Program-made: the position numbers and the translations under genes
The notes under the pieces: generated by a model
What the model saw: only the letters and a program-made list of their open reading frames with translations
Told to the model about the DNA's origin: nothing
Database searches by the model: none
Part shown: positions 42,574 through 63,923 of the stretch, one piece after another
How positions within the stretch are numbered: the first letter of the stretch is position 1
Layout of the letters: each line of letters begins with the position of its first letter
Assembly: GCF_030384885.1 (NCBI RefSeq)
Contig: NZ_CP128613.1
Direction: 5' to 3' (one strand)
DNA from: Escherichia coli
Lineage (GTDB): Bacteria > Pseudomonadota > Gammaproteobacteria > Enterobacterales > Enterobacteriaceae
Length of the DNA stretch: 64,000 bases

Positions 42574-44031
42574 GTGTCTGAACTGTCTCAATTATCTCCA
42601 CAGCCGCTGTGGGATATTTTTGCCAAAATCTGTTCTATTCCTCACCCGTCCTATCATGAAGAGCAACTCGCTGAATACATTGTTGGTTGGGCAAAAGAGA
42701 AAGGTTTCCATGTCGAACGCGATCAGGTGGGTAATATCCTGATTCGTAAACCTGCTACCGCAGGTATGGAAAATCGTAAACCAGTCGTCTTGCAGGCCCA
42801 CCTCGATATGGTGCCGCAGAAAAATAACGATACCGTGCACGATTTCACTAAAGATCCTATCCAGCCTTATATTGATGGCGAATGGGTTAAAGCGCGCGGT
42901 ACCACGCTGGGCGCGGATAACGGCATTGGTATGGCCTCTGCACTGGCGGTTCTGGCTGACGAAAACGTGGTTCACGGCCCGCTGGAAGTGCTGCTAACCA
43001 TGACCGAAGAAGCCGGTATGGACGGGGCGTTCGGCTTACAGAGCAACTGGTTACAGGCTGACATTCTGATTAACACCGACTCCGAAGAAGAAGGTGAAAT
43101 CTACATGGGTTGTGCTGGGGGTATCGACTTCACCTCCAACCTGCATTTAGATCGTGAAGCCGTTCCGGCTGGTTTTGAAACCTTCAAATTAACCTTAAAA
43201 GGTCTGAAAGGCGGTCACTCCGGCGGTGAAATCCACGTTGGCCTGGGTAACGCGAACAAACTGCTGGTGCGCTTCCTTGCGGGACATGCAGAAGAACTGG
43301 ACCTGCGTCTTATCGATTTCAACGGCGGCACACTGCGTAACGCCATCCCGCGTGAAGCCTTTGCGACCATTGCTGTCGCAGCTGATAAAGTCGACGCGCT
43401 GAAAACGCTGGTGAATACCTATCAGGACATCCTGAAAAACGAGCTGGCAGAGAAAGAGAAAAATCTGGCCTTGTTGCTGGACTCTGTTGCGAACGATAAA
43501 GCTGCCCTGATTGCGAAATCTCGCGATACCTTTATTCGTCTGTTGAACGCCACCCCTAACGGTGTGATCCGCAACTCCGACGTAGCAAAAGGCGTGGTTG
43601 AAACCTCACTGAACGTCGGTGTCGTGACCATGACCGACAACAACGTAGAAATTCACTGCCTGATCCGTTCTCTGATCGACAGCGGTAAAGACTACGTGGT
43701 GAGCATGCTGGATTCGCTGGGTAAACTGGCAGGCGCGAAAACCGAAGCGAAAGGCGCATATCCTGGCTGGCAGCCGGACGCTAATTCTCCGGTGATGCAT
43801 CTGGTACGTGAAACCTATCAGCGCCTGTTCAACAAGACGCCGAACATCCAGATTATTCACGCGGGCCTGGAATGTGGTCTGTTCAAAAAACCGTATCCGG
43901 AAATGGACATGGTTTCTATCGGGCCAACCATCACCGGTCCACACTCTCCGGATGAGCAAGTTCACATCGAAAGCGTAGGCCATTACTGGACACTGCTGAC
44001 AGAACTGCTGAAAGAAATTCCGGCGAAGTAA
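42574..44031 (+). CDS. pepD: cytosol non-specific dipeptidase (aminoacyl-histidine dipeptidase)
   Basis: 485-aa ORF recognised. Confidence 0.95.
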   Translation: MSELSQLSPQPLWDIFAKICSIPHPSYHEEQLAEYIVGWAKEKGFHVERDQVGNILIRKPATAGMENRKPVVLQAHLDMVPQKNNDTVHDFTKDPIQPYIDGEWVKARGTTLGADNGIGMASALAVLADENVVHGPLEVLLTMTEEAGMDGAFGLQSNWLQADILINTDSEEEGEIYMGCAGGIDFTSNLHLDREAVPAGFETFKLTLKGLKGGHSGGEIHVGLGNANKLLVRFLAGHAEELDLRLIDFNGGTLRNAIPREAFATIAVAADKVDALKTLVNTYQDILKNELAEKEKNLALLLDSVANDKAALIAKSRDTFIRLLNATPNGVIRNSDVAKGVVETSLNVGVVTMTDNNVEIHCLIRSLIDSGKDYVVSMLDSLGKLAGAKTEAKGAYPGWQPDANSPVMHLVRETYQRLFNKTPNIQIIHAGLECGLFKKPYPEMDMVSIGPTITGPHSPDEQVHIESVGHYWTLLTELLKEIPAK

Positions 44032-48559: not shown

Positions 48560-49138
48560 TTAACGCGTTCGCTGCGAAAGCACCTGCTGCTTATCCAGCT
48601 TTTTCACCAACGGCTGCACCACTTTATCGCCATGCTGACCAAAATATTGATACAACGTATCGGACGCGCTTTTGGTGAGCACCATAATCTCAATGCGCCG
48701 ATTGCCCGCGCTTTGTGGATTTTTGGCATCCAGCAGCATCTGGTCCGCCATTGCGCTCACCCGCGCTTCGCCCTGTAACACCGGCTGCAACTGGCGGTCC
48801 ACCGCGCCGCCGGAAAGTGCGGTGCGTTTGTCCAGCATCTGCGTGAGCGCCGTACCCTGCGCCTGCCCGCTCTTACGCTGGCTATGACGATAATCGAGCA
48901 ATTGCTGCTCCAGTTGCCCGAGATAGTGATCCGCCTGCTGCAACGTGGTGAGCTGATCGTTAAGCTGCACGCTGTAACGCTGCGGGCGAGTGGTAATCAG
49001 CGGCGAGGCCGGATATTCACTCGCCGTCGCCGGGAGCTTTTGCCGCACCGCCTGAGTGGGCGCAACGGTTGACGACGATACCGCAGCGCTATGCGCGCCG
49101 CCGGTGGCGAGTGATGAAGATGTAAGTCCGACCTGCAT
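48560..49138 (-). pseudogene. remnant ORF carrying a MotB/OmpA-type C-terminal motif (LafU/MbhA-like), probably a deletion-fusion product
   Basis: 192-aa ORF ending ..NRRIEIMVLTKS.. (OmpA-like peptidoglycan-binding signature) but lacking MotB N-terminal TM region; sits where the flagellin/motor (laf) cluster would be. Confidence 0.45.
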
Positions 49139-49154: not shown

Positions 49155-50084
49155 TTAGAGAACGCTGAACAAATTCAACTCACTCACCTTCGAGTAAGTC
49201 TTGAGGGTAGCTTCCATTGCCACTTCCAGTCCGGTAAAGGTGATCGACGCCGGGCCGTAATCGAGATCCTGCAATGAACCAATCAACTCATCATTAGAGG
49301 TAGAGATATCGGTCTGCGCATCGCTCAGCATCGACATGGTGTTTTGTGTCTCGCCGAGCGACGCAATCGAGGCGTTGAGGTCGTCCGAGGCGGTGTCCAC
49401 CACATTAACGGCGTTTTGAATATCGCTTTGTACCTGCGGATCTGCCGGGTCAACGTTAGGGTTTTGCAACTCCTGCGACAGGGCATTGAGCGTGTTGAGC
49501 ACATCTAAATTGCTGCCAAAGAAATCGCTCGCCGCCACGTTGGTGTCTACTTCGACGCCGTTCGACACCGTAGTCTGGCGATGGTCGCTGTTACCCTGAT
49601 AGCTGTAGCGATCGGTCACGCCATCACCGTCATCGTCCACCGCCACAATCGGCGGTTGATCGTTGATAGTGCCGCCAAAGACGTAATGCCCGTCTTCATC
49701 CTGATAGTTGAGCGCCGCCACCATCGATTCGGTTAGCGACTCAATATCCTGACCGAGGCTTGCCAGCGAATCGGCGGTATTGGTGCCGTTCGCTGCTTCC
49801 AGCAGGTCGTCGCGCACCGCCAGCAGGCTGTTGTTGACGCCATCAAGAATGGATTCCTGCTGGCTTAAGCCCGCCGACGCGGAGTCGATATTGCTCTGAT
49901 ACTGCTCAATCGCCGACTGCTGGCGGTTCAACTGGGTGATACGTGTGGCGGCGATAGGATCATCCGATGGCTGCAAAATTTCCTTGCCGGTTGCCATCTG
50001 CTCGACCACGTGCGCCAGTTCGCCAGAAAGATTATTAAAACTTTGCGTCATCGAGACGTAGGTTTGTTGGGTGGTTACTCGCAT
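49155..50084 (-). CDS. lfgL: flagellar hook-associated protein 3 (lateral system)
   Basis: FlgL-like N-terminus from MRVTTQQ; flagellin-type terminal helices. Confidence 0.8.
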   Translation of the reverse strand: MRVTTQQTYVSMTQSFNNLSGELAHVVEQMATGKEILQPSDDPIAATRITQLNRQQSAIEQYQSNIDSASAGLSQQESILDGVNNSLLAVRDDLLEAANGTNTADSLASLGQDIESLTESMVAALNYQDEDGHYVFGGTINDQPPIVAVDDDGDGVTDRYSYQGNSDHRQTTVSNGVEVDTNVAASDFFGSNLDVLNTLNALSQELQNPNVDPADPQVQSDIQNAVNVVDTASDDLNASIASLGETQNTMSMLSDAQTDISTSNDELIGSLQDLDYGPASITFTGLEVAMEATLKTYSKVSELNLFSVL

Positions 50085-50098
50085 TTTCGCGCTCCCGC

Positions 50099-51475
50099 TT
50101 AGCTGCACATTTCCAGCACCGAATCAAAAATCTCGGCCCCGGCGGAAATGACTTTCAGATTGGCTTCATAAATTTGTTGATAGGTGATCAGGTTCACCGC
50201 CTCTTCGTCCATGCTGACGCCGCTGACGCTGCTCTGCTGGTTTTGCGCCTCAGAATAGACATTGGACGCAGCGGTCACTTCGGTCTGGTTTTGCTGAGTG
50301 TAAATGCCAATATTGCTGATGATCGACGAGCACGCTTGCCCGACCGTCACGCTGCCGAGGTTGGCTATCTCCAGCGGCTCAGTGGAGATGTTGATCAGCG
50401 CCTGCAGGTTGTCGCTGTTGCCGCTTTCGTCCGGCGAACTGGAGAACGCCAGTTCATCGGCGGTGATATCCGGGTTAACGGTCAGCGGGCCATCGGCATT
50501 ACTGGCATCGTAAATAAACAGCGGCTCGCCGGGGTTACCGTTGAGATCATAGCCCTGCGCCAGCTGATTGTTGACCGCATCGGCGAACTGCGACGCCATG
50601 CTGTTGATGGTGTCGGTCAGCGGCGTCAGCACGTCGTTTTGATAATCAAAAAGTGCGCCTAATGAACCGCCGGTATCGGTGGTCATGGTCGAGGTCGTTC
50701 CGGCAAAGGTCAGTGTCATCGTTGGCGTGCCATCGGCGTTGGTTTCCAGCGCGATGGTCGAACTTTGCTGCCCGCTCACCAGCGGCTGACCGTTTTGCAG
50801 GGTGACGTTGTAGTTGCCCTGGTCGTCGATATTGACCTGCACATCCATCATTCCGCTGAGTTCTTCCACCATCTGATCACGAGCGTCATACAGCGCGGAG
50901 GCGTTATCACCGTTGGCTTCGGCCTGGGCGATTTGCTGGTTATAGCTGGCGATGCCGCTGGTGAGCGTATTGATTTGCGACACCATCGCCTGCTGCTGGC
51001 TGATGATTTCTGTGCTTTGCGAGTCGATGTAATCGAGCGTGTTATCGATACGCAACGACAGCGCCCCGGCTTCGCTGATCACCTGCTCGCGCAGGGCAGA
51101 ATCATCGGGGCTGGTGGTCGCTTCGTTGAGGGCCGCGAAAAAGTTATCGAACCCGCCGCTCAGGCTACTGTTATCGTCGCTCAATACCGCTTCCAGTTGC
51201 GTGAGATACCCTTGCTGGGTGTTGTAATAGCCGTAATCGCTGGCGGCATACCACACCTGATTCACCTGATACTGGTTGGAGACGCGACGAATGCTGTCCA
51301 CCTGTACACCGTTTCCGGCGCTGTTCGGCGAACCGCCGCTGGCACCGATGGTGCTGATCTCCGCCACCTGGCGGGTGTAGCCCGTGGTCATGGCGTTAGC
51401 GGTGTTTTGCGCCGTGACGTTCAGCTCCACCTGCGCCGTTGATGCGCCGCTGTAGCCGATGTTAATCATGTCCAT
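50099..51475 (-). CDS. lfgK: flagellar hook-associated protein 1 (lateral system)
   Basis: 458-aa ORF; FlgK-like N-terminus ..AQNTANAMTTGYTRQ.. Confidence 0.85.
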   Translation of the reverse strand: MDMINIGYSGASTAQVELNVTAQNTANAMTTGYTRQVAEISTIGASGGSPNSAGNGVQVDSIRRVSNQYQVNQVWYAASDYGYYNTQQGYLTQLEAVLSDDNSSLSGGFDNFFAALNEATTSPDDSALREQVISEAGALSLRIDNTLDYIDSQSTEIISQQQAMVSQINTLTSGIASYNQQIAQAEANGDNASALYDARDQMVEELSGMMDVQVNIDDQGNYNVTLQNGQPLVSGQQSSTIALETNADGTPTMTLTFAGTTSTMTTDTGGSLGALFDYQNDVLTPLTDTINSMASQFADAVNNQLAQGYDLNGNPGEPLFIYDASNADGPLTVNPDITADELAFSSSPDESGNSDNLQALINISTEPLEIANLGSVTVGQACSSIISNIGIYTQQNQTEVTAASNVYSEAQNQQSSVSGVSMDEEAVNLITYQQIYEANLKVISAGAEIFDSVLEMCS

Positions 51476-51544: not shown

Positions 51545-51895
<351 letters not shown>

Positions 51896-51896
51896 C

Positions 51897-52196
51897 TCAT
51901 TTATGCTTCGGCGACAACTGCTTCACAATCATCGCCGCGATCCCTATCCCGTGCTGCTGCGCCAGGGTGTTACACAACTCATCGTCATAAAACCCCTGCA
52001 TCATGCGCACCGAATCGCTGTTAAATGGGTTATCTTTCGAATCAAACAACTCGTTGGTTTTACGCATCTCTTTCAGCATGTTGCGTAAAAAAATCGCCTC
52101 AAACTGTTCGGCGGCCTGCTTAATATCATTGGCCTGAACCTTCGGCCCCATTAACGCATCGCTGCCGTCAATCCCGCCGCTGGCGTTGACTTTCAT
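51897..52196 (-). CDS. lfgJ: FlgJ-like rod-binding protein, short form without muramidase domain
   Basis: 99-aa ORF; ..QFEAIFLRNMLKEMRKT.. aligns with FlgJ N-terminal rod-binding domain. Confidence 0.7.
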   Translation of the reverse strand: MKVNASGGIDGSDALMGPKVQANDIKQAAEQFEAIFLRNMLKEMRKTNELFDSKDNPFNSDSVRMMQGFYDDELCNTLAQQHGIGIAAMIVKQLSPKHK

Positions 52197-53296
52197 CAGA
52201 TCACCTCCAGGTCGGCATCCAGCGCGCCCGCTTCATGCAGCGCCTGCAAAATCGACATAATGTCGTCCGGCGTTGCGCCTAAACTGTTCAGCGCATTGAC
52301 CAGCGTTTTCAGGCTGCTCGACTCCGGCAAACTCACCACGCCCGGACGGGCATGATTCACCGCGATATTGCTCTGCGGCGTTACCGCCGTACGCCCGCCC
52401 GCAAAGGCATTCGGCTGGCTGACGTTGCTGGTTTCGTTAATTGAGACGGTCAGGCTGCCGTGCGACACCGCCGCCGCGTGCAGCGCGATGCCATCGCCCA
52501 TCACCACCGTACCGGTACGCGAGTTAAACACCACGCGGGCGCGGATTTTCTCCGCCTGCACCTGCACATCATCCAGTTGCGACATAAACGCCACCCGCGC
52601 GCCGGGGCTGGTGGGCGCACGCACGGTGACGTTGGTGGAACTCTGCGCCGTGGCAATGCCGCCAAACGAAGCGTTGATCGCCGCCGCAATGTTGTTGGCG
52701 TCTTTAAACGACGGGCGTTTCAGGTTAAGCGTGATGGTGTCGCCCATCTGAAAATCGCTGGGGATTTCGCGCTCCACCGTCGCGCCATTGGGGATTAACC
52801 CGGCGGTCGGCGTATTAACCGTTACGCTCGAGCCGCTGGCCCCGGTGGCATTCATCCCGCCCACCACCACACTTCCCTGCGCCAGGGCATACACTTCGCC
52901 ATCTGCGCCGTGCAACTGGGTCAGCAGCAAGGTGCCGCCGCGAATACTTTTGGCATCGCCAATCGACGAGACGGTGACATCAATAGTCTGCCCACGCGAG
53001 TACATCGGCGGCAACGTGGCGCTCACCGCCACCGCGGCGACGTTTTTCACCTTCGGGTCGATTTTATTTGGCAACTGCACGCCAAACTGGCGCAGCATAT
53101 TGGTGATGGTCTGGTTGGTGAATTTGACCTGGTTTTTATCGCCCGTACCGTCGAGGCCGACCACCAGGCTGTAGCCGACCAGTTGGTTTTCACGCACGCC
53201 CTGTACGTTGACCAGCGACTCCAGCGATTGCGCCAGCGCCACGCCAGGTAGCGCCAGGCTTACGGCTACCATCACCGTTTTTATCCAGTTTTGCAT
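52196..53296 (-). CDS. lfgI: flagellar P-ring protein
   Basis: FlgI-like; start at Met with GGAGAG RBS giving signal peptide [22 protein letters not shown]. Confidence 0.9.
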
Positions 53297-53310
53297 TGCA
53301 CTCTCCGGCA

Positions 53311-53976
53311 TTAAATCGGGAACAGAGGATGGTTAAACAGCCGGGTCAGCCAGCCTGCGGCGTTGGCGTCGCTTAACGCGCCACGTCCGGCATAGGAGAT
53401 ACGGGCGTCGGCGATCCGCTGGGAAGAAACCGAGTTGTCATTCTGGATATCGTCGGCGCGCACCAGGCCGCTTAAGCGGATGTACTCATCGCCCTGATTG
53501 AGGGTGAGCCATTTCTCGCCGCGAATTTCCAGGATGCCGTTGGGCTGCACCGCATGGACGGAAACAGTGATCTCCCCGCGCAGACTGTTCTGCTGCTGGG
53601 ACGTGGCGCTGCCGTCAAAGTCGCGGTTGGCGTCGATGGAGCCGGAGAGGTTATTTTTGGTGTGACCAAATACCGTTGGCGCGGTGATATCGACGCTGTT
53701 GCTTTTGCCGAAATTGGTTTTCGCCTGTTTGCTCGACTGGGTCGATTCTTCGAGGATCACCGTCAGGATATCGCCCACGCGATAAGCCCGCCGATCGGCG
53801 GTTAGCGACCAGTTGTAGCCCGTTTCAAACACGCCCCCGGCACGCCCGTCTGCCGGAGGCGGCGCTTCGGTTTTCGGTGGCGCAAAGTATGCGTCGTCTT
53901 TTTTGACCAGAATGGCCTGCGATTCACACCCGCTAAGCAGGGGAAGCAGCGCCACCAGCCAGAGATAATTTTTCAC
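53311..53976 (-). CDS. lfgH: flagellar L-ring lipoprotein
   Basis: 221-aa ORF with lipobox LLSGC. Confidence 0.9.
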
Positions 53977-54045
53977 GTTCTGCCTGTTTAGTGTTGCAGG
54001 CCACGGGGTGGCCGGTTGTTTGGTGGGTTGGAGCGGGTTTGTTCC

Positions 54046-54158
54046 CCCTCACCCTAACCCTCTCCCCAAAGGGGCGAGGGGACCGATCGAGCGCGTTTTT
54101 ACATCGTGCTCCACTTTTCTCCCTCTCCCTGTGGGAGAGGGCCGGGGTGAGGGCATCA
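54046..54158. repeat. about 112-bp GC-rich palindromic intergenic repeat, copy 1
   Basis: Terminal inverted motifs CCCCTCACCC...GGGTGAGGG and internal hairpin CCCTCTCCC-TGT-GGGAGAGGG; reverse complement of copy at 61282-61392. Confidence 0.65.
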
Positions 54159-54179
54159 GGCCGCACCGCCCTTAACGCC

Positions 54180-54965
54180 TTACAGCGTCTGACTGATGTA
54201 CTGCAACATATCGTCCGCCGCCGACACCATTTTGGCGTTCATCTCGTAGGCACGTTGCACCGTAATCATCGCCACCATTTCGTTGACGATATCCACGTTC
54301 GAGCCTTCGAGCGCATTGTCCTGCAAGGTGCCAAGCCCATCTTCGCCCGGTACGCCTTCGGTCGGCTGACCGCTGGCGGCGGTTTCCAGATAGAGGTTGT
54401 CACCCTCGGCAGAAAGCCCCGCCGGGTTGGCGAAGTTGACCAGCGTCAGTTGCCCTAACTCGGTCACGTCGCTGTCGCCAGGTAAGATAGCCGTCACCGT
54501 GCCGTCCTCACCAAACGCAACATTCGTCGCCCCCGCCGGAACGTCGATTTCCGGCTGTAACGGCAAGCCCTGCGAGTTGGTCAGCACGCCGTCGGCGTTC
54601 ACCTGCAAGTTGCCGTCGCGGGTATAGGCGATATCGCCGTTGGCCTTTTGCACCTGCAAAAACCCCTGCCCCATAATGGCGACATTCATCGCGTTGTCGG
54701 TGGTTTCGACGTTGCCTTCGGTAAAGGTTTTCTGAGTGCCGACAATGCGCACGCCGCTACCGAATTGCAGCCCGGTCGGCATGATGTTGTTCTGGTCGAG
54801 CATCGCGCCCGGCGCTTCCTGGGTCTGGTAGAACAGATCCTGAAACATCACCCGGTCGCGCTTGAAGCCGGTGGTGTTAACGTTGGCGATGTTGTTGGCA
54901 ATCGCGCTCATTTCAGCATCCTGCGCCGAGAGGCCGGTTTTGCTGATCCATAATGCTGCGTTCAT
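54180..54965 (-). CDS. lfgG: flagellar distal rod protein
   Basis: 261 aa from MNAALWISKTGL; ORF-track extension upstream runs into a REP element. Confidence 0.85.
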   Translation of the reverse strand: MNAALWISKTGLSAQDAEMSAIANNIANVNTTGFKRDRVMFQDLFYQTQEAPGAMLDQNNIMPTGLQFGSGVRIVGTQKTFTEGNVETTDNAMNVAIMGQGFLQVQKANGDIAYTRDGNLQVNADGVLTNSQGLPLQPEIDVPAGATNVAFGEDGTVTAILPGDSDVTELGQLTLVNFANPAGLSAEGDNLYLETAASGQPTEGVPGEDGLGTLQDNALEGSNVDIVNEMVAMITVQRAYEMNAKMVSAADDMLQYISQTL

Positions 54966-54984
54966 GGTGGTAAATTCCGTGTTA

Positions 54985-55140
<156 letters not shown>

Positions 55141-55143
55141 CGG

Positions 55144-55881
55144 TTACGAGCCGCGCAATAAGCGGTTGCCCGCGTCGCTGATATCTTCGGCGGTTTTCAT
55201 CATTTTGATCTGCGCTTCAAACTGGCGGTTCATGGCGATGGACGACATCATTTCGCTCACCGCCGAGACGTTGCTGCCCTCGAGAAAACCGCCGCTGACT
55301 TTGATGTTTTCATCACGCTGGGCCGGAACGCCGTCGCTAGTCACCAGCATCCCTTCAGGATTTTTCGCCAGGTTAGCAACCGGGATATCCACCAGCTTCA
55401 GGCGGTCGATATCCATCGTGGCGGTCACGTCACCGTCATCGGGCGTCACCGACAGCGTGCCGTCGCTGCCAAACGAGGCAATGGCGTTCGGCGGCAGAAT
55501 GATCGGGCCGTTATCCCCCAGTACCAGATTGCCGTCGATGGTCAGTTGCCCCTGATCGTCCTGCTGAATGTTGCCGTTGCGGGTATAAACTTCGTTGCCG
55601 TTTTTATCCTGCACCGCAATGTAACCCGCCCCCTGAATCGCCACGTCCAGCGGGCGTTCGGTTTTCTCCGCCACACCCGTGCTGTCGTTCACGCCGCTGG
55701 CCCCTTCCTGCGCCATATAGCGCGTGTCGAAGCCGCCGCCTTTCACCTTGTCGTTGGTCGCCATCGCCATATCGGCGCGAAAACCGTTGGTGTTGACGTT
55801 CGCCAGGTTGTTGGCGCTAATTTGCTGCTCGTACAACGTCTGAGAAGCCCCGCTCAGGGCGGTATAAATCAAGCGATCCAT
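55144..55881 (-). CDS. lfgF: flagellar proximal rod protein
   Basis: 245-aa FlgF-like ORF; start overlaps lfgE stop. Confidence 0.9.
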   Translation of the reverse strand: MDRLIYTALSGASQTLYEQQISANNLANVNTNGFRADMAMATNDKVKGGGFDTRYMAQEGASGVNDSTGVAEKTERPLDVAIQGAGYIAVQDKNGNEVYTRNGNIQQDDQGQLTIDGNLVLGDNGPIILPPNAIASFGSDGTLSVTPDDGDVTATMDIDRLKLVDIPVANLAKNPEGMLVTSDGVPAQRDENIKVSGGFLEGSNVSAVSEMMSSIAMNRQFEAQIKMMKTAEDISDAGNRLLRGS

Positions 55882-57083
55882 TACATTGCCTGGAACAGCG
55901 CGTCATCGAGCTGTGTGCTGGTGGCGATAACTTTGGTGTTGGCCTGATAGTTACGCTGGGCGGTCATCAGGTTAACCAGTTCGCTGGTGATATCGACGTT
56001 AGAGCTTTCGAGCACACCGGACGACAGCGTGCCGCAGGTGCCGGAGCCGGGAACGCCAATCAGTGGCGTGCCGGATTCCCCGGTTTGTACCCATGCGGTG
56101 CCGCTCACTGCCTCCAGGCCGTTTTCATTCGGGAAAGTCGCCAGCACCACTTGGCCCTGCAACATGCGCTCGCCGTTGCTGTAGGTGGCGTAAACTTTGC
56201 CATCGTCATCAACCTGCACACCGTTTTGCGTGGCGGAAGCGTAACCGTTGGCGGAGTTGGTGGTGACAGAAAATTCAGAACCGTATTGCGTACAGGTGGA
56301 GTAATCGACGGTCAAATCGATGGGCGCGGCGGCGTCGGTCTGAAACTCAATGGTCTGCGGCGTAGTTGGCGAGGTCAGTTTTCCGGTATTCGGGTCGAAG
56401 GTTAAGGTCGTCGCCGGAACACCAGTCTGCTGCTGACCGTCGAAGGTGTACTGCACTTCCCAGGTGTTATCGCTGGTTTTGGTGAAGTACTGGCATACCG
56501 AGTGTTCGTTACCTAATGAGTCATACACCGTGGTGGTGTAGCTGTCGGTGTACGAACTGCTGTTGGTCGGATCGAACGGCACGGTAGTGCGGTCGATAGC
56601 GTCGTCACTGGCATCGAAGTTGGCGGTAAAGGTCAGGCTGCTGCTGGCCTGCGCCGGGATATTGCCGGTTTTGATCTGGATATCCGTCACCGTACCGGTT
56701 TGCAAAGTGCCGCTGTCATCGACCGGATAGCCCTGCAAATAAGCGCCCGAGGCGTTAACGATATAGCCGTCTTTGTCCGTTTCAAACGATCCGGCGCGGG
56801 TATAAGAGATGTTGCCTGCGCTGTCGCACATCACAAAAAAGCCGTCGTCGTTAATCGCCAGATCCAGCGCATTACCGGTGGAGACCAGCGAACCGCCGCG
56901 CGAAATACTTTGCGCGGTGCCCGCCACGCTGACGCCCATTGCCTGGCTTCCGGCATACATGGCTGAAAACTGGGTAGTCATCGACTTATACCCCACCGTT
57001 CCGGCGTTAGCGATGTTGTTACTGATCCCGTCCAGCTGTTCGTTAACGGCATTCAGCCCCGTTGCGGCAATTTCATAACTCAT
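55881..57083 (-). CDS. lfgE: flagellar hook protein
   Basis: 400-aa FlgE-like ORF. Confidence 0.9.
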   Translation of the reverse strand: MSYEIAATGLNAVNEQLDGISNNIANAGTVGYKSMTTQFSAMYAGSQAMGVSVAGTAQSISRGGSLVSTGNALDLAINDDGFFVMCDSAGNISYTRAGSFETDKDGYIVNASGAYLQGYPVDDSGTLQTGTVTDIQIKTGNIPAQASSSLTFTANFDASDDAIDRTTVPFDPTNSSSYTDSYTTTVYDSLGNEHSVCQYFTKTSDNTWEVQYTFDGQQQTGVPATTLTFDPNTGKLTSPTTPQTIEFQTDAAAPIDLTVDYSTCTQYGSEFSVTTNSANGYASATQNGVQVDDDGKVYATYSNGERMLQGQVVLATFPNENGLEAVSGTAWVQTGESGTPLIGVPGSGTCGTLSSGVLESSNVDITSELVNLMTAQRNYQANTKVIATSTQLDDALFQAM

Positions 57084-57106
57084 TGTTTCTTCCTGTTAAT
57101 TGATTC

Positions 57107-57820
57107 TTACGCCACATCACTGTCGGCATCGGGTACGCCAAACTGGCTAATCATGGTGAACGGCACTTCGCCCACACCTGCAACGTTGAGCACCGGAGAG
57201 CTGCCGTCGAGCGGGATACGTACATCCTCCACTTCGCCGGAGACTTCAATCGGTACCTCTTCTTCCCCGGTGTTGGTCACCACCGAAACGTCGTAATCAC
57301 CCGGCGGGATGCCGTAATCCGCCGGATTAATCGAGAAATCAACCTGGCCTGGTCCAACCGACGAACTCCCTTCCGGGATCAGCGAGACGGTGTAGTCATC
57401 GCCCGCGGCATCGGTAAAGTGGAGTTCGGCGGTGGTACAGGCGTCGTCCAGTGTGGCGCGACCGTTAATGGTCTGGTCACTCACCTGCAAGGCGGTGGTC
57501 TGCACCATAATGTCGTCGCCCACCAGGTTGCCGAGCGCCATCACCTGAATGTTGCTCATCAGCACCGCGTTGGTATTGGCCTGCACGCTCATCTCTTCCA
57601 TCATCGCCACCTGCGCCATCGACGAAAGCTGGTCGATATATTCGGTGGCATCGGTCGGGTCGGTCGGGTCCTGGTTTTGGATCTCGGCGACAAACAGCGT
57701 CAGGAAAGTATCGACGGGCGAGCTATCGCTGCTGCTTGTCGTGTCGCTGGCCGCCACGTTGTTGCTTTCCGCCGTGGCGGTCGGCTGCGGCGATTGCGCA
57801 TTCAGCGCCAGGGTATTCAT
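57107..57820 (-). CDS. lfgD: flagellar hook capping/assembly protein
   Basis: 237-aa FlgD-like ORF. Confidence 0.85.
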   Translation of the reverse strand: MNTLALNAQSPQPTATAESNNVAASDTTSSSDSSPVDTFLTLFVAEIQNQDPTDPTDATEYIDQLSSMAQVAMMEEMSVQANTNAVLMSNIQVMALGNLVGDDIMVQTTALQVSDQTINGRATLDDACTTAELHFTDAAGDDYTVSLIPEGSSSVGPGQVDFSINPADYGIPPGDYDVSVVTNTGEEEVPIEVSGEVEDVRIPLDGSSPVLNVAGVGEVPFTMISQFGVPDADSDVA

Positions 57821-58251
57821 CAGGCTTCTCCCAGTTTCAGCAGGCTTTGCTGCATACTTTTCACGTTGTTGAGCACATCGACATTGGTTTCAAAATCGCG
57901 CGAAGCCGACATCATGTCCGCCATCTGTTCCACCACGTTGACGTCGGGATACCAGACATCGCCGTTGGCATCCGCCAGCGGCGAATGCGGTTCATAGCGT
58001 TTCAGCGCCCCGCCGGTTTGCAGCACGTCCTGCACCTGCACGCTGGCGCCGTCAATGGCATGACGATGCGTTCCCGCCAGCAAACTGTGGTGATACACCG
58101 CGGCAAACACCGGGCTGCGTGCTTTATACGCCTGCGCCTCGCTGCTGGCGGGCGCATTGGCATTCGCCAGGTTACTGGCGACGGTATTCAGACGCAGCGT
58201 TTGCGCCGTCATCGCCGAGCCGGAAATCTGATAGATATCAGTAAATGACAT
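57820..58251 (-). CDS. lfgC: flagellar proximal rod protein
   Basis: 143-aa FlgC-like ORF. Confidence 0.9.
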   Translation of the reverse strand: MSFTDIYQISGSAMTAQTLRLNTVASNLANANAPASSEAQAYKARSPVFAAVYHHSLLAGTHRHAIDGASVQVQDVLQTGGALKRYEPHSPLADANGDVWYPDVNVVEQMADMMSASRDFETNVDVLNNVKSMQQSLLKLGEA

Positions 58252-58253
58252 GC

Positions 58254-58589
58254 TTATTTCCCTTCAATGGCCTCTCTGATACCGCTGATTTGCAGATTCA
58301 GAAAGGTCAGACTGCTTTGATAATCCATACTATTTTGTGAAAACCGCGCCTGTTCGCTGTTCAGTTCCACGGTGTTACCATCTTCCGACGGCTGCATCGG
58401 CACGCGGTACTGCACATCCACCGCCGCGTTATTTGCCCGTTGCATCTCCCTGGCAAAATCAATATCTTTAGCCTTGAAATTTGGCGTATCGACATTCGCC
58501 AGATTCGCAGTCAGTAGCTCGGTCCTCTCAAGACGTAACTTCACTGCCTGCGGATGTACTCCCAATGCTTGCTGAAAACTGATCCCCAT
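58254..58589 (-). CDS. lfgB: flagellar proximal rod protein
   Basis: FlgB-like; start at MGISFQQ because a sigma-54 promoter occupies the longer ORF's first codons. Confidence 0.8.
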   Translation of the reverse strand: MGISFQQALGVHPQAVKLRLERTELLTANLANVDTPNFKAKDIDFAREMQRANNAAVDVQYRVPMQPSEDGNTVELNSEQARFSQNSMDYQSSLTFLNLQISGIREAIEGK

Positions 58590-58624
58590 TTCTTGCGTCA
58601 CTCCCGCTTCAATCCGCATACGCT

Positions 58625-58641
58625 AAGCAATCGCTGTGCCA
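58625..58641 (-). promoter_or_regulatory. sigma-54 (-24/-12) promoter for lfgB operon
   Basis: Minus strand reads TGGCAC-AGCGA-TTGCT, exact -24 GG / -12 GC spacing. Confidence 0.55.
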
Positions 58642-58670
58642 ATTTTTAAGTGACTGATGAGAAAGGGTTT

Positions 58671-59408
58671 ATGAGTTTTCAATTTTGCAGGCGGAAGTTG
58701 TATTTCCTCCTGGCGCTGGCCTTACCGGGCTACGCCGCCGTCCATCCCGTGCAACATAGCGCGCGGGAACAAGTCAACGCCCAGGTGCTGAATGCCGCGA
58801 GCCAGCAGATTGAATCGCTGGCGCAACAGCGGCAGTGGCATGACTATCGCTACACCTTTAAGGTCTACATTCCCTCGCAGATTGCGACCGCCGCGCCCTG
58901 CGCTACGGCCCCCGGCGTCACGCTGACTTCGCCTGCGGAAATCGCTCTCAACCGGATGAACTTCACCGTCAGTTGCCCGCAAAGCTGGCAGATGAACGTT
59001 GCGGTGCGCCCGGATGTTCTGGTGCCGGTGGTGATGGCGAAGTCACTGGTTGCCCGCGATACGCCGCTCACGGCAAATGATGTGGAGCTGAAGCCCTACA
59101 ACGTCAGCGCCCAGCGGCGGGATGTGCTGATGGATCTCAATGAAGCGATTGGTTTAAGCAGCAAACATGCCCTGCAACCAGGCAGGCCGCTTACCAAAGA
59201 AGAACTGGTTTCGCCAGTGCTGATCGAGCGCGATCAGCCGGTGATGATTGTTTACCAGAGCGCGGGGATCACCGCCTCGATGCCCGGCGTGGCGCTGAAA
59301 AATGGTCGCAAAGGGGAAATGGTGAAAGTACGTAACGCCAGCAGTCAGCGGGTCATTAGCGCAATAGTGGCGGAAAGCGGCGTGGTGACAACGGTAAGCG
59401 CGGAGTAA
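58671..59408 (+). CDS. lfgA: flagellar P-ring assembly chaperone
   Basis: FlgA-like ORF, signal peptide from internal Met; divergent from lfgB. Confidence 0.75.
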   Translation: MSFQFCRRKLYFLLALALPGYAAVHPVQHSAREQVNAQVLNAASQQIESLAQQRQWHDYRYTFKVYIPSQIATAAPCATAPGVTLTSPAEIALNRMNFTVSCPQSWQMNVAVRPDVLVPVVMAKSLVARDTPLTANDVELKPYNVSAQRRDVLMDLNEAIGLSSKHALQPGRPLTKEELVSPVLIERDQPVMIVYQSAGITASMPGVALKNGRKGEMVKVRNASSQRVISAIVAESGVVTTVSAE

Positions 59409-59488
59409 TTTACGCAGGCGATTAAAGTTTTGCCGCCTGTTAACCGCTTTACCGGAGTAACACACCTTCAAACAGAGACGAGGTTGCG

Positions 59489-59764
59489 ATGAAAATCACC
59501 CCGACTATGCCAGGCAATCGCCCGACAGCCACAACGGCAGGCTCCAGCCAGCCGCGCAAAACTACGGCGACCACCACGACGCTCAGCGCCGACGACATTA
59601 CCCAGGCGGGATTGCAGTCTGCCCAGCAAACGCTGAACGACCAGCAAGAGAGCGATATCGACAGCGATAAAGTGGCGCAAATGCAGGCGATGCTGGCGTC
59701 CGGCAGCCTGCAAGTGGACACCGAACAGTTAGCCAGCGACATGCTGAGTTTTTTCCAGAACTAA
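59489..59764 (+). CDS. lfgM: anti-sigma-28 factor FlgM-like
   Basis: 91-aa ORF, Thr/Gln-rich, C-terminal amphipathic helix pattern. Confidence 0.7.
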   Translation: MKITPTMPGNRPTATTAGSSQPRKTTATTTTLSADDITQAGLQSAQQTLNDQQESDIDSDKVAQMQAMLASGSLQVDTEQLASDMLSFFQN

Positions 59765-59776
59765 GAGGCCGATGAA

Positions 59777-60205
59777 GTGAGTATCCGGTTACAACAGGTG
59801 AAGGCGTTGTTGCAGGGAATTCGTGACGACGACGCACTGTACGATTCCCTGCGCGAACTTCTCCAGCGTCAGCGGATCTGCATGATTCGCCGCGCCAGTG
59901 AAGAGTTGATGGCGGTAAACGACGAGATAACGCAGCACTATGAGCAGTTGCATGGGCATAGCCATCAGCGGCACAGCCTGCTGCAACTGCTGGGTGTCAG
60001 CGTAAATCGTGACGGTCTGGCGCAGGTGTTTGCCTGGCTTCCGGCGGTACAAAAAGCGGCAGCACAACAGTTGTGGCAACGCCTGGAGCAAAAAACGGAA
60101 CGCTGCAAAGCCTATAACGATAAAAACGGCGAGCTGTTGATTCGTCAGTATGAATTTATTCAGTCTTTTTTAGGCAGCGAAGCGGATTTTCTGTATCAGG
60201 AATAA
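59777..60205 (+). CDS. lfgN: FlgN-like export chaperone
   Basis: 142-aa ORF, GTG start, follows lfgM. Confidence 0.65.
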   Translation: MSIRLQQVKALLQGIRDDDALYDSLRELLQRQRICMIRRASEELMAVNDEITQHYEQLHGHSHQRHSLLQLLGVSVNRDGLAQVFAWLPAVQKAAAQQLWQRLEQKTERCKAYNDKNGELLIRQYEFIQSFLGSEADFLYQE

Positions 60206-60331
60206 CGCGAATACCTTCCCCATAGCGGAAACGGATTTTCCGCCTGATTTCCAATCCTTTGTTTTTGATGAAAAAAAATCCCGGCACGCTTATTGCACAT
60301 CCTGCACAGCATTAAAGACTGGAAGCCACCT

Positions 60332-61261
60332 ATGAGTTTTATTGAATGTTACGAACCGGAATATGTGCGCAATTTTATGGCGCAATATCCCGATTCGCCT
60401 TTATACGTCCGCAAGGTGTGGAAGAATGAGATTCGCCAGAGCCTGGCATTGACCGATATTGCCAGTTGCAAAGCAGTGCTCAACGATGCCAGGGCCTTTG
60501 AATTACAGCTTACCTATCGCCCTGTGGAAGAAAATGCCGCAGCACTCTCCGCGCGCGATGCGATAGTAAACCAGATAATTTTGAGCACCCTCACGCTCCC
60601 GGATTTAACCCCAGAGCTTTCACTGTATGCCGTCGGTATCCTGCTCTCCCGCGCCAATAAAATGCCGGGCAGAGACGGCGACACTCTTGCCCGGCTGACA
60701 ACGCTGCCGCAGGCGCTGGCCGATCACGCACAAAAAGGCACGCTACAGGCACAGTTCGCCCAGCTACCGCCCGTGCCACAGCTGGCGCGCCAACTGGTGA
60801 CACTGCTCGGCAGTTGTGCGTTTGACTGGTCGATTCTGCCAGAAAGCCCGCGCAAAGCCTCGCTACCGTTGCAGGTGACTTTGCTGACGCTGCACGACGC
60901 CAACAGCGAAGCCCTGTTACAGCATCAGCTTCAGACGCAGTGGCAAACCACCTGGCAACAGCATTTTGCCACCGCGCCGTGGATGATGCGTAACTGGCTG
61001 ATTTACCGCGTTTACCACGATGTGATTGGGCAGACTGACGGGGCGGATTATTGCCCGCTGGTGTGCGATTTTTACCTCATCCGCACGTTAATCAGTTTAT
61101 GGACGCTGGATGATTCACCGCTGCGGCAGGAGGATATTTTCGCCCTCTTCGCGGTGTTTGAACGCTGGCGAGTGAGTGAAAATGCGCTGTTAGTTCGCCA
61201 GCAAATTCAGTCGTTATGTGCCGCCGAGCCGCTGCTTTCAGCGTTTTCGCTGCTTACATGA
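60332..61261 (+). CDS. hypothetical protein associated with lateral flagellar locus
   Basis: ORF 60293-61261 (TTG-initiated in track); first ATG at 60332; no motif. Confidence 0.45.
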   Translation: MSFIECYEPEYVRNFMAQYPDSPLYVRKVWKNEIRQSLALTDIASCKAVLNDARAFELQLTYRPVEENAAALSARDAIVNQIILSTLTLPDLTPELSLYAVGILLSRANKMPGRDGDTLARLTTLPQALADHAQKGTLQAQFAQLPPVPQLARQLVTLLGSCAFDWSILPESPRKASLPLQVTLLTLHDANSEALLQHQLQTQWQTTWQQHFATAPWMMRNWLIYRVYHDVIGQTDGADYCPLVCDFYLIRTLISLWTLDDSPLRQEDIFALFAVFERWRVSENALLVRQQIQSLCAAEPLLSAFSLLT

Positions 61262-61281
61262 ATCGCTCTGTGCGCGCTGAT

Positions 61282-61392
61282 GCCCCTCACCCCGGCCCTC
61301 TCCCACAGGGAGAGGGAGAAAACCTGCGCCCAATTCAGCACCACGCTCGATCGGTCCCCTCGCCCCTTCGGGGAGAGGGTTAGGGTGAGGGG
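61282..61392. repeat. about 112-bp GC-rich palindromic intergenic repeat, copy 2 (inverted relative to copy 1)
   Basis: Reverse complement aligns with 54046-54158. Confidence 0.65.
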
Positions 61393-61451
61393 CAAAGCGC
61401 GCATAGCGCCTCCTAACCCATCACATTCACCCACTAACTCACCCAAACACC

Positions 61452-63923
61452 ATGCCAACACCAAGCATCATCAAAACACTCGCCACCCACCGCGAAAAAC
61501 CGTTCGTCAGCGTCGTCACGCCAACCTGGAACCGCGGCGCATTCCTCCCGTACCTGCTCTATATGTACCGCTATCAGAACTACCCGGCAGACCGCCGCGA
61601 ACTGATCATCCTCGACGACTCACCGCAAAGCCATCAACACATCATCGACCGCCTGACCAATGGCACACCGGAAGCCTTTAACATCCGCTACATCCATCAC
61701 CCGGAAAAACTGCCGCTGGGCAAAAAACGCAATATGCTCAACGAACTGGCGAGCGGCGAATATATCCTCTGCATGGATGACGACGACTACTACCCGGCAG
61801 ATAAAATCTCCTGGACCATCGCCATGATGCAAAAACACCGGGCGCTGATCTCTGGTTCCGACCAGATCCCCATCTGGTACAGCCATATCAACCGCATCTT
61901 TCAAAGCCGCAGCTTTGGCCCGCATAACATCCTCAACGGCACCTTTTGTTATCACCGTAACTACCTGAAAAAGCACCGTTACGATGACGATTGCAATTTA
62001 GGCGAAGAGAAAAGTTTCACCGACAATTTCAGCGTTAACCCGCTACAACTGCCCAGCGAACGCACCATTTTGTGTATCTCGCATAGCCACAACACCTTTG
62101 ATAAAGATTTTATTCTTGGGGCCAGCACGCCTGTAAATGCCGAACTGAGCGATATCGTCAGCGATCCGCTGCTACGCAATGCTTATCTGAGTCTGCATAA
62201 CGCCACGCATCACCAGGGGATCAACCATCAGGCGATCGATCAGATAGTTGTTGTGAATCTGGATAAACGCCCGGATCGTTTACGGCAGATCCGTGAAGAG
62301 CTGGCATTGCTGCATATTCCGCCTGAAAAAATTACCCGCCTTGCCGCCTGTGAAGATGAAAACGGTCAACGGGGCCGCCGCCTGTCGCACTTGCAGGCGC
62401 TACGCCTGGCGCAACAGCACAGCTGGCAAAATTACCTGCTGCTGGAAGATGACGCGGTTATTCTCAAGCAGGAGAAACATATTCAGGTACTGAACACGCT
62501 GCTGGCGAGCCTGGCGAAAATCCCCTGGCAGGTGATGATCCTTGGTGGCGAAATTTCGCAAGGAACAATGCTAAAAAGCCTGCCGGGGCTGGTGCACGCG
62601 CGGGACTGCCGCAAAGTGTGCGCTTATCTGGTGAACAGTCGTTACTACCCACAACTGGCGCAGCAGATGGGCAACGATGAGCACTCGCTGGAAGACGGCT
62701 GGCAGCCACTGCTACGCGCCGACAAATGGCTGGCCTGTTACCCGAGTATTTGTTACCAGCGACCGGGCTTTAGCGATATCGAGAAAAAAGCGACCGATAA
62801 CATCATTCACTATTTCAATAAGTTACCCATAGCCACAAAGCCATCCGCATTACCCATCGCCGACACCATCGGCTTTTTAATGGAAACCTCATTCCACTAC
62901 GCGCTCTATCGCCCAATCATCACCGCCCTACAGGCGCAGGGGCAAAGTTGCACACTGGTAATCAACGATCGCGTGTTTAAACCGTTTCTGGATGAAATGC
63001 TGGCGACGCTAAAAAGCATCGACGATCCGCAGCTTAAAGGTATGCGCTTGTCTGAAATGCAGGCACACGGTCAGCGGGTGAAATGCCTGGTCAGCCCCTA
63101 CCACACACCCGCGCTCAATGGCCTTTCACCCGTGAACATCCGCGCCATGTACGGCTTAGCCAAAGAAACGTGGAACCACGCCGACTGGAACCGTTTTTAT
63201 CAACGCATTTTGTGTTACAGCCACTACAGCCAGCAGGCGCTGGCGCACCTCAGCAGCGCGAAAGTGGTCGGCAACCCACGCTTCGACGCCTGGCATAACG
63301 GCACGTTTGACCGCGCCCTGCCGGAAAATATCCAACCCGATTCCCGTAAACCTACGGTGCTCTACGCCCCCACGTTTGGCGCATTAAGCTCCCTGCCCCA
63401 CTGGGCAGAAAAATTGGGGCGCTTGAGCGGTGATGTGAACCTGATTTGCAAACTGCACCACGGTACCTGCTCGCGCCCGGAAGAAGCCGCATCGCTAACC
63501 CAGGCACGCAGGCATTTAAAACAGTGCACCAACTCAGCCCAGCACACACTGGCGCAGCTGGCAAAGGCCGATTACGTGCTCACCGATAACAGCGGCTTTA
63601 TTTTCGATGCTATCCACGTTGATAAGCGAGTGATCCTGCTCGACTTTCCGGGTATGACGGAACTGCTCGACGGTGAGAAAAGTTACTCCACGGCGGAGAG
63701 CGCTGACCAGCGGATTCGCGAAATATTGCCGGTGGCTCATGATATGGCTGAGCTGCGTTACTTATTGTCAGAGGCGTTTGACTGGGGGGCGGTACAGGCG
63801 CGGCTTACGGAGATTCGCCATCACTATTGTGACGCGTTTATGGATGGCAAGGCGGGAGAACGGGCGGCGATGGTGGTTGTGGAGGCGCTGGCGGGCAAGG
63901 AACCGTCAGGAATATGTCGATAA
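61452..63923 (+). CDS. multidomain glycosyltransferase (GT2-like, GT25-like and TagF-like glycerophosphotransferase modules)
   Basis: 823-aa ORF; N-terminal VVTPTWNRG..LDDSP..CMDDDD (GT-A/DXD); middle VVNLDKRPDRL (GT25-like); C-terminal region TagB/F-like. Confidence 0.65.
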   Translation: MPTPSIIKTLATHREKPFVSVVTPTWNRGAFLPYLLYMYRYQNYPADRRELIILDDSPQSHQHIIDRLTNGTPEAFNIRYIHHPEKLPLGKKRNMLNELASGEYILCMDDDDYYPADKISWTIAMMQKHRALISGSDQIPIWYSHINRIFQSRSFGPHNILNGTFCYHRNYLKKHRYDDDCNLGEEKSFTDNFSVNPLQLPSERTILCISHSHNTFDKDFILGASTPVNAELSDIVSDPLLRNAYLSLHNATHHQGINHQAIDQIVVVNLDKRPDRLRQIREELALLHIPPEKITRLAACEDENGQRGRRLSHLQALRLAQQHSWQNYLLLEDDAVILKQEKHIQVLNTLLASLAKIPWQVMILGGEISQGTMLKSLPGLVHARDCRKVCAYLVNSRYYPQLAQQMGNDEHSLEDGWQPLLRADKWLACYPSICYQRPGFSDIEKKATDNIIHYFNKLPIATKPSALPIADTIGFLMETSFHYALYRPIITALQAQGQSCTLVINDRVFKPFLDEMLATLKSIDDPQLKGMRLSEMQAHGQRVKCLVSPYHTPALNGLSPVNIRAMYGLAKETWNHADWNRFYQRILCYSHYSQQALAHLSSAKVVGNPRFDAWHNGTFDRALPENIQPDSRKPTVLYAPTFGALSSLPHWAEKLGRLSGDVNLICKLHHGTCSRPEEAASLTQARRHLKQCTNSAQHTLAQLAKADYVLTDNSGFIFDAIHVDKRVILLDFPGMTELLDGEKSYSTAESADQRIREILPVAHDMAELRYLLSEAFDWGAVQARLTEIRHHYCDAFMDGKAGERAAMVVVEALAGKEPSGICR

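Follow-up and report, generated by a model that had tools for sequence, protein, structure and literature searches.

The window, by which we mean the whole 64-kb stretch of Escherichia coli DNA analysed here, contains a series of minus-strand open reading frames (ORFs) that NCBIfam assigns to FlgB, C, D, E, F, G, H, I, J, and K, with FlgJ being short and comprising the rod-binding part only. The first of these genes, lfgB (58254-58589), encodes a FlgB-type proximal rod protein of 111 aa (TIGR01396 FlgB, 105 bits vs. a cut-off of 59). Downstream of the lfgB promoter follow lfgC, D, E, F, G, H, I, and J (51897-58251, minus strand), i.e., the remaining rod/hook/ring operon, and then, after a 420-bp gap with a terminator-like hairpin, lfgKL (49155-51475). 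The gene divergent from lfgB is lfgA (58671-59408, plus strand), which encodes the P-ring chaperone FlgA (ChapFlgA) and whose start was taken from the RefSeq annotation of a 98% identical genome. According to the RefSeq annotation of that E. coli genome, lfgA is followed by genes for FlgM, FlgN, LafV (lysine-N-methylase), and a glycosyltransferase. REP-like GC-rich elements were also observed at 51569-51880 (lfgJ/lfgK), 54042-54159 (lfgG/lfgH), 54966-55143 (lfgF/lfgG), and 61270-61409 (after lafV), and the lfgF/lfgG element is ~100 nt longer in the window than in E. coli SMS-3-5.

The region shares 93-95% identity with the Flag-2 locus of E. coli SMS-3-5 and 96-98% with the one in Pseudocitrobacter vendiensis. 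It thus corresponds to cluster 2 of the Flag-2 (lateral-type) flagellar loci known from Enterobacterales (PMC6993521). In assemblies labelled Pseudocitrobacter faecalis and P. vendiensis (L003, L006), the Flag-2 cluster is 89-98% identical to the window and the LfgB protein is identical. The dinB flank of the window is E. coli-like. The likeness to Pseudocitrobacter may reflect horizontal transfer or mislabelled assemblies.

Compared to E. coli SMS-3-5, the window lacks ~9 kb of the Flag-2 locus, namely the 5′ part of lafW, lafZ, lafA (flagellin), lafB-F, lafS (sigma-28), lafT, and the 3′ part of lafU. What is left of lafU, its 5′ part on the dinB side, is joined to the 3′ part of lafW at ~48757-48761 (ORF 48560-49138, minus strand). 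This lafU-lafW junction was present in none of the 5,426 complete E. coli genomes that were searched. The genes from lfgA through lfgL are intact ORFs.

Upstream of lfgB, the minus strand carries a sigma-54 −24/−12 core element, TGGCACAGCGATTGC, at 58627-58641 (the plus strand reads gcaatcgctgtgcca), in which GG occupies −25/−24 and GC −13/−12. The earlier note had reported an exact TGGCAC-N5-TTGC at 58625-58641; the motif is indeed present, with the range given there including two extra bases on the 3′ side. The extended 17-mer, TTGGCACAGCGATTGCT, spans 58626-58642 on the same strand. In the compilation of Barrios et al., the sigma-54 consensus reportedly reads YTGGCACGrNNNTTGCW, and TTGGCACAGCGATTGCT agrees with this consensus except at one specified position; its GG and GC also lie exactly 10 nt apart within TGGCAC-N5-TTGCW. 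The site is located on the lfgB strand inside an 81-bp gap, which extends between the start codon of lfgB (58589, minus) and that of the divergent lfgA (58671, plus). Between the −12 C (58627) and the lfgB ATG at 58589 we measured 37 nt, in line with the ~36 bp claimed previously and within the range of 30-73 nt found in 80 related loci.

The number of matches in the window taken on its own says little about this site. The exact TGGCAC-N5-TTGC occurs only once in the 64 kb, at the site upstream of lfgB, but 0.30 copies are expected and at least one copy appeared in 28 of 100 shuffles of the whole window, so that the count is not significant. Copies with one mismatch were found at the chance rate (7 vs. 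7.1 expected in the window). For any given 100-nt promoter region, the chance of an exact match is ~2e-4, as calculated from the window-wide count. A weight-matrix scan for RpoN sites, the check proposed in the earlier note, ranked the lfgB site first in the window with 18.9 bits, while the maximum in 30 shuffled windows was 17.7 bits; the matrix was our own approximation of the published consensus. The second-best match, TTGGTATGGCCTCTGCA at 42926-42942 (plus strand, 15.3 bits), lies inside the ORF 42574-44031 and is probably due to chance. It is thus the position of the lfgB site and its conservation that make it meaningful, and not the window-wide count. No sigma-70-like −35/−10 pair was found before lfgB (minus strand, 58200-59000), a scan for terminators upstream of lfgB returned none, and an Rfam scan of 57500-61500 gave a single weak and meaningless match.

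To assess conservation, we fetched 80 loci with aligned LfgB homologues from one-genome-per-species collections. They belong to Escherichia, Pseudocitrobacter, Citrobacter, Phytobacter, Pseudescherichia, Enterobacter, Yersinia, Rahnella, Serratia, Pantoea, Erwinia, Kluyvera, Cedecea, Lelliottia, Izhakiella, Tatumella, Mangrovibacter, Rosenbergiella, Pseudomonas (nitroreducens group), Serpens, and Methylomonas. In all 80 loci, a GG-N10-GC site located 30-73 nt from the start codon had the highest sigma-54 score within the 150 nt preceding lfgB, and it reaches at least 15 bits in 69 of them. Among 21,750 control windows of 150 nt from the same loci, only 0.46% scored at least 15 bits, even with the true sites still counted in. 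Of the 80 loci, 67 carry the matrix-free pattern TGGCAY-N5-TTGC in the 120 nt preceding lfgB; in the remainder of these loci it was found only 19 times in 3.17 million positions, i.e., 0.0007 times per 120 nt. The 17-mer itself is identical in E. coli SMS-3-5. As the 80 loci are related by descent, these counts are not independent, and the argument therefore relies on how strongly the motif differs from its flanks in conservation. The information profile of 77 distinct motif-anchored sequences peaks at T-GG-CA and TTGC and drops to nearly zero over the 30 nt downstream, and the flanks of the site cannot be aligned among the 80 loci. By this comparison, an invariant motif within unalignable flanks is the signature of selection.

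These results bear directly on whether the element could be a chance match to a short consensus, with lfgB being transcribed from another promoter. Such an explanation would agree with the non-significant single exact copy and with the chance-level number of one-mismatch copies in the window. Against it stand the recurrence of the site at an equivalent position in every one of the 80 related loci despite diverged flanks, the lack of a sigma-70-like promoter upstream of lfgB in the region scanned, and experimental evidence from a related system: the promoter of the orthologous Vibrio parahaemolyticus gene flgB2 (VPA0264), with the predicted site ATGGCACGTATCTTGTTTG, binds RpoN in EMSA (PMC9817140). 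We regard a chance match as essentially refuted by the conservation and its probability as negligible. By the same three observations, the previous proposal that the lfgB operon has a sigma-54 promoter, unlike the sigma-70/FlhDC-driven system, holds up well.

The position of the promoter also helps to define the start of lfgB. Sigma-54 promoters initiate transcription ~12 nt downstream of the GC. From this geometry, transcription is predicted to start at ~58615 (58613-58617, minus strand), i.e., 12 nt past the −12 C (58627). In the ORF list, lfgB starts with the ATG at 58619, which yields a protein of 121 aa, while the ATG at 58589 yields 111 aa. The ATG of the longer ORF (58619-58617) lies at −4 to −2 relative to the predicted start and would therefore be outside the transcript. 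Furthermore, 13 LfgB homologues from ten genera all begin with M-[GSA]-I-[ST]-F, which aligns with the ATG at 58589. Homologues in the database are mostly 111-116 aa long, with the spread in length being caused by an internal insertion. The homologue alignment supports the 111-aa start, and the argument of the earlier note that the start at 58619 is too far upstream is upheld both by the predicted transcription start and by the homologues beginning at the second methionine. Transcription would thus begin near 58615, giving a 26-nt leader followed by translation from the ATG at 58589. The 5′ leader (58590-58612, minus strand) includes a Shine-Dalgarno sequence, GGGAG, at 58605-58601, and AGGAG or GGGAG is kept there in the Escherichia and Citrobacter loci. 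The RefSeq annotation of LfgB is inconsistent, with 111 aa and an ATG start in E. coli SMS-3-5 (L002 20055-20390) and 103 aa and a TTG start in E. coli RMDEC465 (L001 6055-6366). The promoter position would fix a start codon that is currently annotated in different ways.

A second conserved element, an inverted repeat, is located further upstream and represents a candidate enhancer (UAS). It was noticed by eye in E. coli SMS-3-5, in the sequences that precede the three strong sigma-54 sites of the Flag-2 locus, namely those of lfgB, lafB/fliD, and lafV, where the copies are GGAAATAAAACTTCCGCC (lfgB), CGGAAACACCATTTCCGCC (lafB, L002 7765-7779), and GCGGAAACGGATTTTCCGCC (lafV). An automatic search for 12-mers shared by the three E. 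coli promoters returned only AT-rich words at the top and did not pick up the repeat. In the window, the repeat GGAAGTTGTATTTCC (GGAA-N7-TTCC) occupies 58693-58707 and is centred at approximately −85 from the predicted transcription start. It lies 65 nt upstream of the −27 base of the lfgB site, separated from the promoter by the first ~40 nt of lfgA, and falls on the lfgA codons R-K-L-Y-F-L, which are among the first ~20 codons of this gene. The window contains three copies of GGAA-N7-TTCC (1.0 expected), two of which are part of sigma-54 modules: the one upstream of lfgB, and one at 60227-60241, located 54 nt upstream of a sigma-54-like site at 60281-60297 that precedes lafV. The third copy (54538-54552) is situated inside lfgG, has no sigma-54 site nearby, forms part of a longer palindrome, CCGGAACGTCGATTTCCGG, and also occurs in E. 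coli SMS-3-5.

An exact GGAA-N7-TTCC is present upstream of the lfgB promoter in 68 of the 80 loci, compared to a background of 0.024 per 200 nt. In 11 further loci, GGAA-N7-TTCA is found at an offset of 67, which brings the total to 79 of 80 and leaves Methylomonas as the sole locus without the repeat. The offset between repeat and lfgB site is mostly 62-69 nt, with 75 nt in Tatumella and Rosenbergiella and 121-122 nt in Pseudomonas and Serpens. The symmetry extends to G-N-GGAAR-N5-YTTCC, and the central five bases vary freely. When the exact copies from all loci are pooled, about half have a sigma-54 site of at least 11 bits downstream, with offsets clustering at 54-57, 62-69, 75, 99, and 121-122 nt. 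As an observation rather than a fit, these offsets are compatible with steps of ~11 bp, i.e., with one face of the helix.

The location of the repeat within lfgA raises the question of whether its conservation merely reflects the encoded protein. The Phe codon in the repeat is always TTC and never TTT, the codon preceding Lys always ends in G, irrespective of whether it encodes R, G, W, V, or M, and the codon following Phe always begins with C, irrespective of whether it encodes R, P, or L. In five Pseudomonas-type loci, the repeat is kept in another reading phase. Upstream of the sigma-54 sites of lafV and lafB, it occurs in non-coding DNA at a distance of 54 nt. The frozen codon positions in lfgA together with the non-coding copies at lafV and lafB indicate a constraint on the repeat at the level of DNA, and given the coding location some constraint at the protein level is possible in addition.

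An IHF site between the repeat and the −24 element was considered but discarded. The core WATCAANNNNTTR with at most one mismatch occurs in this interval in 50 of the 80 loci; it overlaps the lfgA start codon, and the window copy has two mismatches. In the lfgB promoters of the loci L024-L062, an AT-rich block, (A/T)TCATGATGTTA(T/A)AAAC, was observed at −45 to −33, abutting the −24 element and containing the lfgA start codon. The equivalent in the window is CTCATCAGTCACTTAAAAA, a poorer match to WATCAANNNNTTR.

Sigma-54 promoters of this kind raise the question of the activator. LafK is the class II regulator of the lateral systems of Vibrio and Aeromonas (PMC4481668, PMC11242183). In E. coli, the Flag-2 loci of the strains SMS-3-5 and RMDEC465 both contain its gene. 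In close relatives, lafK adjoins lfiE at 12.9 kb from lfgB, which puts its syntenic position ~7 kb past the right end of the window (64000). Neither lafK nor rpoN is located within the window. The E. coli LafK protein (328 aa) is built from Sigma54_activat, AAA lid, and HTH_8 domains; its Walker A sequence reads GETGAGKE, a GAFTGA motif is present, the helix-turn-helix at the C terminus is of the Fis type, and a sensory domain at the N terminus is lacking. In agreement with this, LafK has been classed with PspF and HrpR/S as a regulator without sensory domain (PMC3162934).

Together, the promoter geometry, the conservation, and the repeat suggest, with a probability of about 0.88, that this site serves lfgBCDEFGHIJ, the rod/hook/ring operon of a Flag-2 locus, as its sigma-54 (RpoN) promoter. 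RNA polymerase with sigma-54 would bind at the lfgB site as a closed complex. An enhancer-binding protein that hydrolyses ATP, most likely LafK, would then open this complex. LafK would bind to GGAA-N7-TTCC, which is centred ~85 bp upstream in the first part of the divergent lfgA, and would reach the polymerase by looping of the DNA.

A genuine sigma-54 promoter could also be served by an activator other than LafK, such as one of the polar flagellum or a housekeeping protein, or the repeat could bind a different regulator. There is precedent for the former: Plesiomonas has lateral flagella without LafK that rely on the polar activator FlaK (PMC11242183), and LafK and FlaK cross-activate in V. 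parahaemolyticus (cited in PMC4481668 and PMC11242183). However, the Flag-2 loci of close relatives encode a LafK with a DNA-binding HTH_8 domain. A different regulator at the repeat is made less likely by two of the three window copies being sigma-54 modules and by the pairing of about half of the copies in related loci with a sigma-54 site at fixed offsets. We therefore consider both variants unlikely and continue with LafK as the probable activator.

Activator sites of other sigma-54 systems include TGCACC-N5-GGTGCA for NtrC, TGT-N10-ACA for NifA, and GTCaNTAAATTGAC for FleQ. GGAAR-N5-YTTCC is not known to be among such sites.

Based on its distribution, the repeat is a hallmark of LafK-type lateral systems and provides a concrete candidate for the LafK binding site. 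We lean towards the view that proteins of the LafK family recognise GGAAR-N5-YTTCC. This would define their DNA site for the first time, a site which would be conserved from Vibrio to Escherichia and Pseudomonas, would be placed at distances from the −24 element that change in steps of ~11 bp, and would constrain synonymous positions of lfgA. No description of a LafK binding site was found in the literature searched, and key older papers lie outside that search. The lfgB promoter belongs to a known class (sigma-54, class II, lateral flagella), and the E. coli site itself is possibly already listed in earlier literature. The conserved repeat as an enhancer candidate, a by-product of the analysis of which no description was found in the searched papers, is the part of greater interest.

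The same pairing of repeat and sigma-54 site points to further candidate units for LafK control. Upstream of lafV (60332-61261, plus strand), the repeat GGAAACGGATTTTCC (60227-60241) and the sigma-54-like site CCGGCACGCTTATTGCA (60281-60297, 15.2 bits) form a second module (60227-60297, plus strand), with CCGGCACGCTTATTGCA located 35 nt upstream of the lafV ATG at 60332. Escherichia and Pseudocitrobacter share the conserved site upstream of lafV, and several Citrobacter loci have an equivalent after lfgN. Another sigma-54-like sequence, GTGGCATGACTATCGCT, was observed within lfgA at 58835-58851 (plus strand, 13.8 bits), pointing toward lfgM/lfgN at 142 nt from the same repeat that lies upstream of lfgB; as a promoter it is unproven and was set aside, as it is conserved only among near-identical Escherichia-type loci.

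In the divergent region between lafK and lfiM of E. coli SMS-3-5 (L002 34239-34610), we found neither a sigma-54 site (best match 8 bits) nor a GGAA-N7-TTCC. This suggests that lafK and the export-apparatus operon are probably not sigma-54 dependent, and in Aeromonas such units were reported as sigma-70 class I (PMC4481668). The region in SMS-3-5 also holds a REP-like GC-rich element. In the resulting hierarchy, lafK-lfiEFGHIJ and lfiMNPQR-lfhBA would be sigma-70 class I units. In the next step, sigma-54 and LafK would activate three further units: the operon headed by lfgB, lafV, and the operon headed by lafB with the sigma-28 gene. The paired signature of a repeat and a −24/−12 element at 54 or 65 nt could serve as a simple finder for LafK-controlled promoters. 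For E. coli, it predicts three class II units, namely the lfgB operon, lafV, and the lafB operon with sigma-28, with lafK itself not being driven by sigma-54.

The loss of part of the locus from the window bears on whether the promoter is still in use. The Flag-2 system of this genome is probably no longer functional, as the third Flag-2 cluster with flagellin, sigma-28, and stator genes is deleted, while the promoter is intact. A complete organelle cannot be built from this locus, and expression may here be silenced or serve no purpose. The promoter could consequently be a recent relic with an intact sequence in a decaying Flag-2 locus that is never fired, e.g., because lafK is lost or silent. 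The ~9-kb loss from lafW to lafU relative to E. coli SMS-3-5 fits with this, deletions are common in Flag-2 loci (PMC6993521; PMC11420993), and the closest E. coli relative carries an IS621 insertion and has lost lfgE-J. On the other hand, genomes with complete loci have the same or nearly the same promoter and repeat sequences, and the ORFs from lfgA to lfgL are intact. Taken together, a relic is a serious possibility, though one that we rate at somewhat under even odds, and it concerns the current use of the element rather than its nature.

Among the closest known counterparts is the flgB2 promoter of V. parahaemolyticus, which shares with the window the orthologous gene, the divergent lfgA, and a −24/−12 element ~40 nt before the start codon. 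It differs in its −12 element, which is TTGT there and the canonical TTGC in the window. Scanning metagenomes with the published Vibrio 19-mer retrieved five loci, of which only L090, a 1.38-Mb Vibrio-like contig, encodes LfgB; L089, another match to the 19-mer, turned out to be unrelated coding DNA. L090 contains the exact VPA0264 site with the repeat GGAAGTTTGGCTTCC 55 nt upstream. At an offset of 55 nt, the Vibrio-like repeat is located in intergenic DNA, whereas the window repeat, at an offset of 65 nt, is one helical turn further away and inside lfgA. The repeat and spacing in common with this Vibrio-like flgB2 promoter, along with the published V. parahaemolyticus hierarchy, lend indirect support to a possible requirement for LafK. 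The distant locus L085, with 57% LfgB identity, has the same arrangement of repeat and promoter, and an Aeromonas-like contig (L092) carries two copies of GGAA-N8-TTCC. Among distant FlgB representatives (L083, L093, L094, and L095), the sigma-54 site, the repeat, or both are missing, with L083 and L093, FlgB loci of other lineages, having neither; these four belong to other regulatory types.

With respect to the activator, the system resembles PspF at pspA and HrpR/S at hrpL, where the activator likewise consists of AAA+ and HTH only and an inverted-repeat enhancer is located upstream of the −24/−12 element. In contrast to these systems, the candidate enhancer described here is unusually close, with its centre at −74 or −85, and overlaps the divergent coding sequence.

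In locus type and gene order, the region corresponds to the Flag-2 systems of E. coli 042 and other Enterobacterales (Ren et al. 2005; De Maayer et al. 2020), and it differs from other E. coli Flag-2 loci by its own deletion from lafW to lafU. An analysis of promoters is absent from the comparative Flag-2 paper PMC6993521. As indicated by the NCBIfam assignments of FlgB-FlgK and by E. coli synteny, the lfgB promoter heads the early structural operon of the lateral/Flag-2 cluster. The class 2 flgB promoter of the Flag-1 system in E. coli and Salmonella likewise drives flgBCDEFGHIJ and is divergent from flgA. However, that promoter depends on sigma-70 and FlhDC (PMC4481668), whereas the window has a sigma-54 element and no sigma-70-like hexamers. 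This suggests that the Flag-2 loci of enterobacteria keep the sigma-54/LafK logic of the Vibrio lateral system and not the FlhDC/sigma-70 logic of the primary flagellum.
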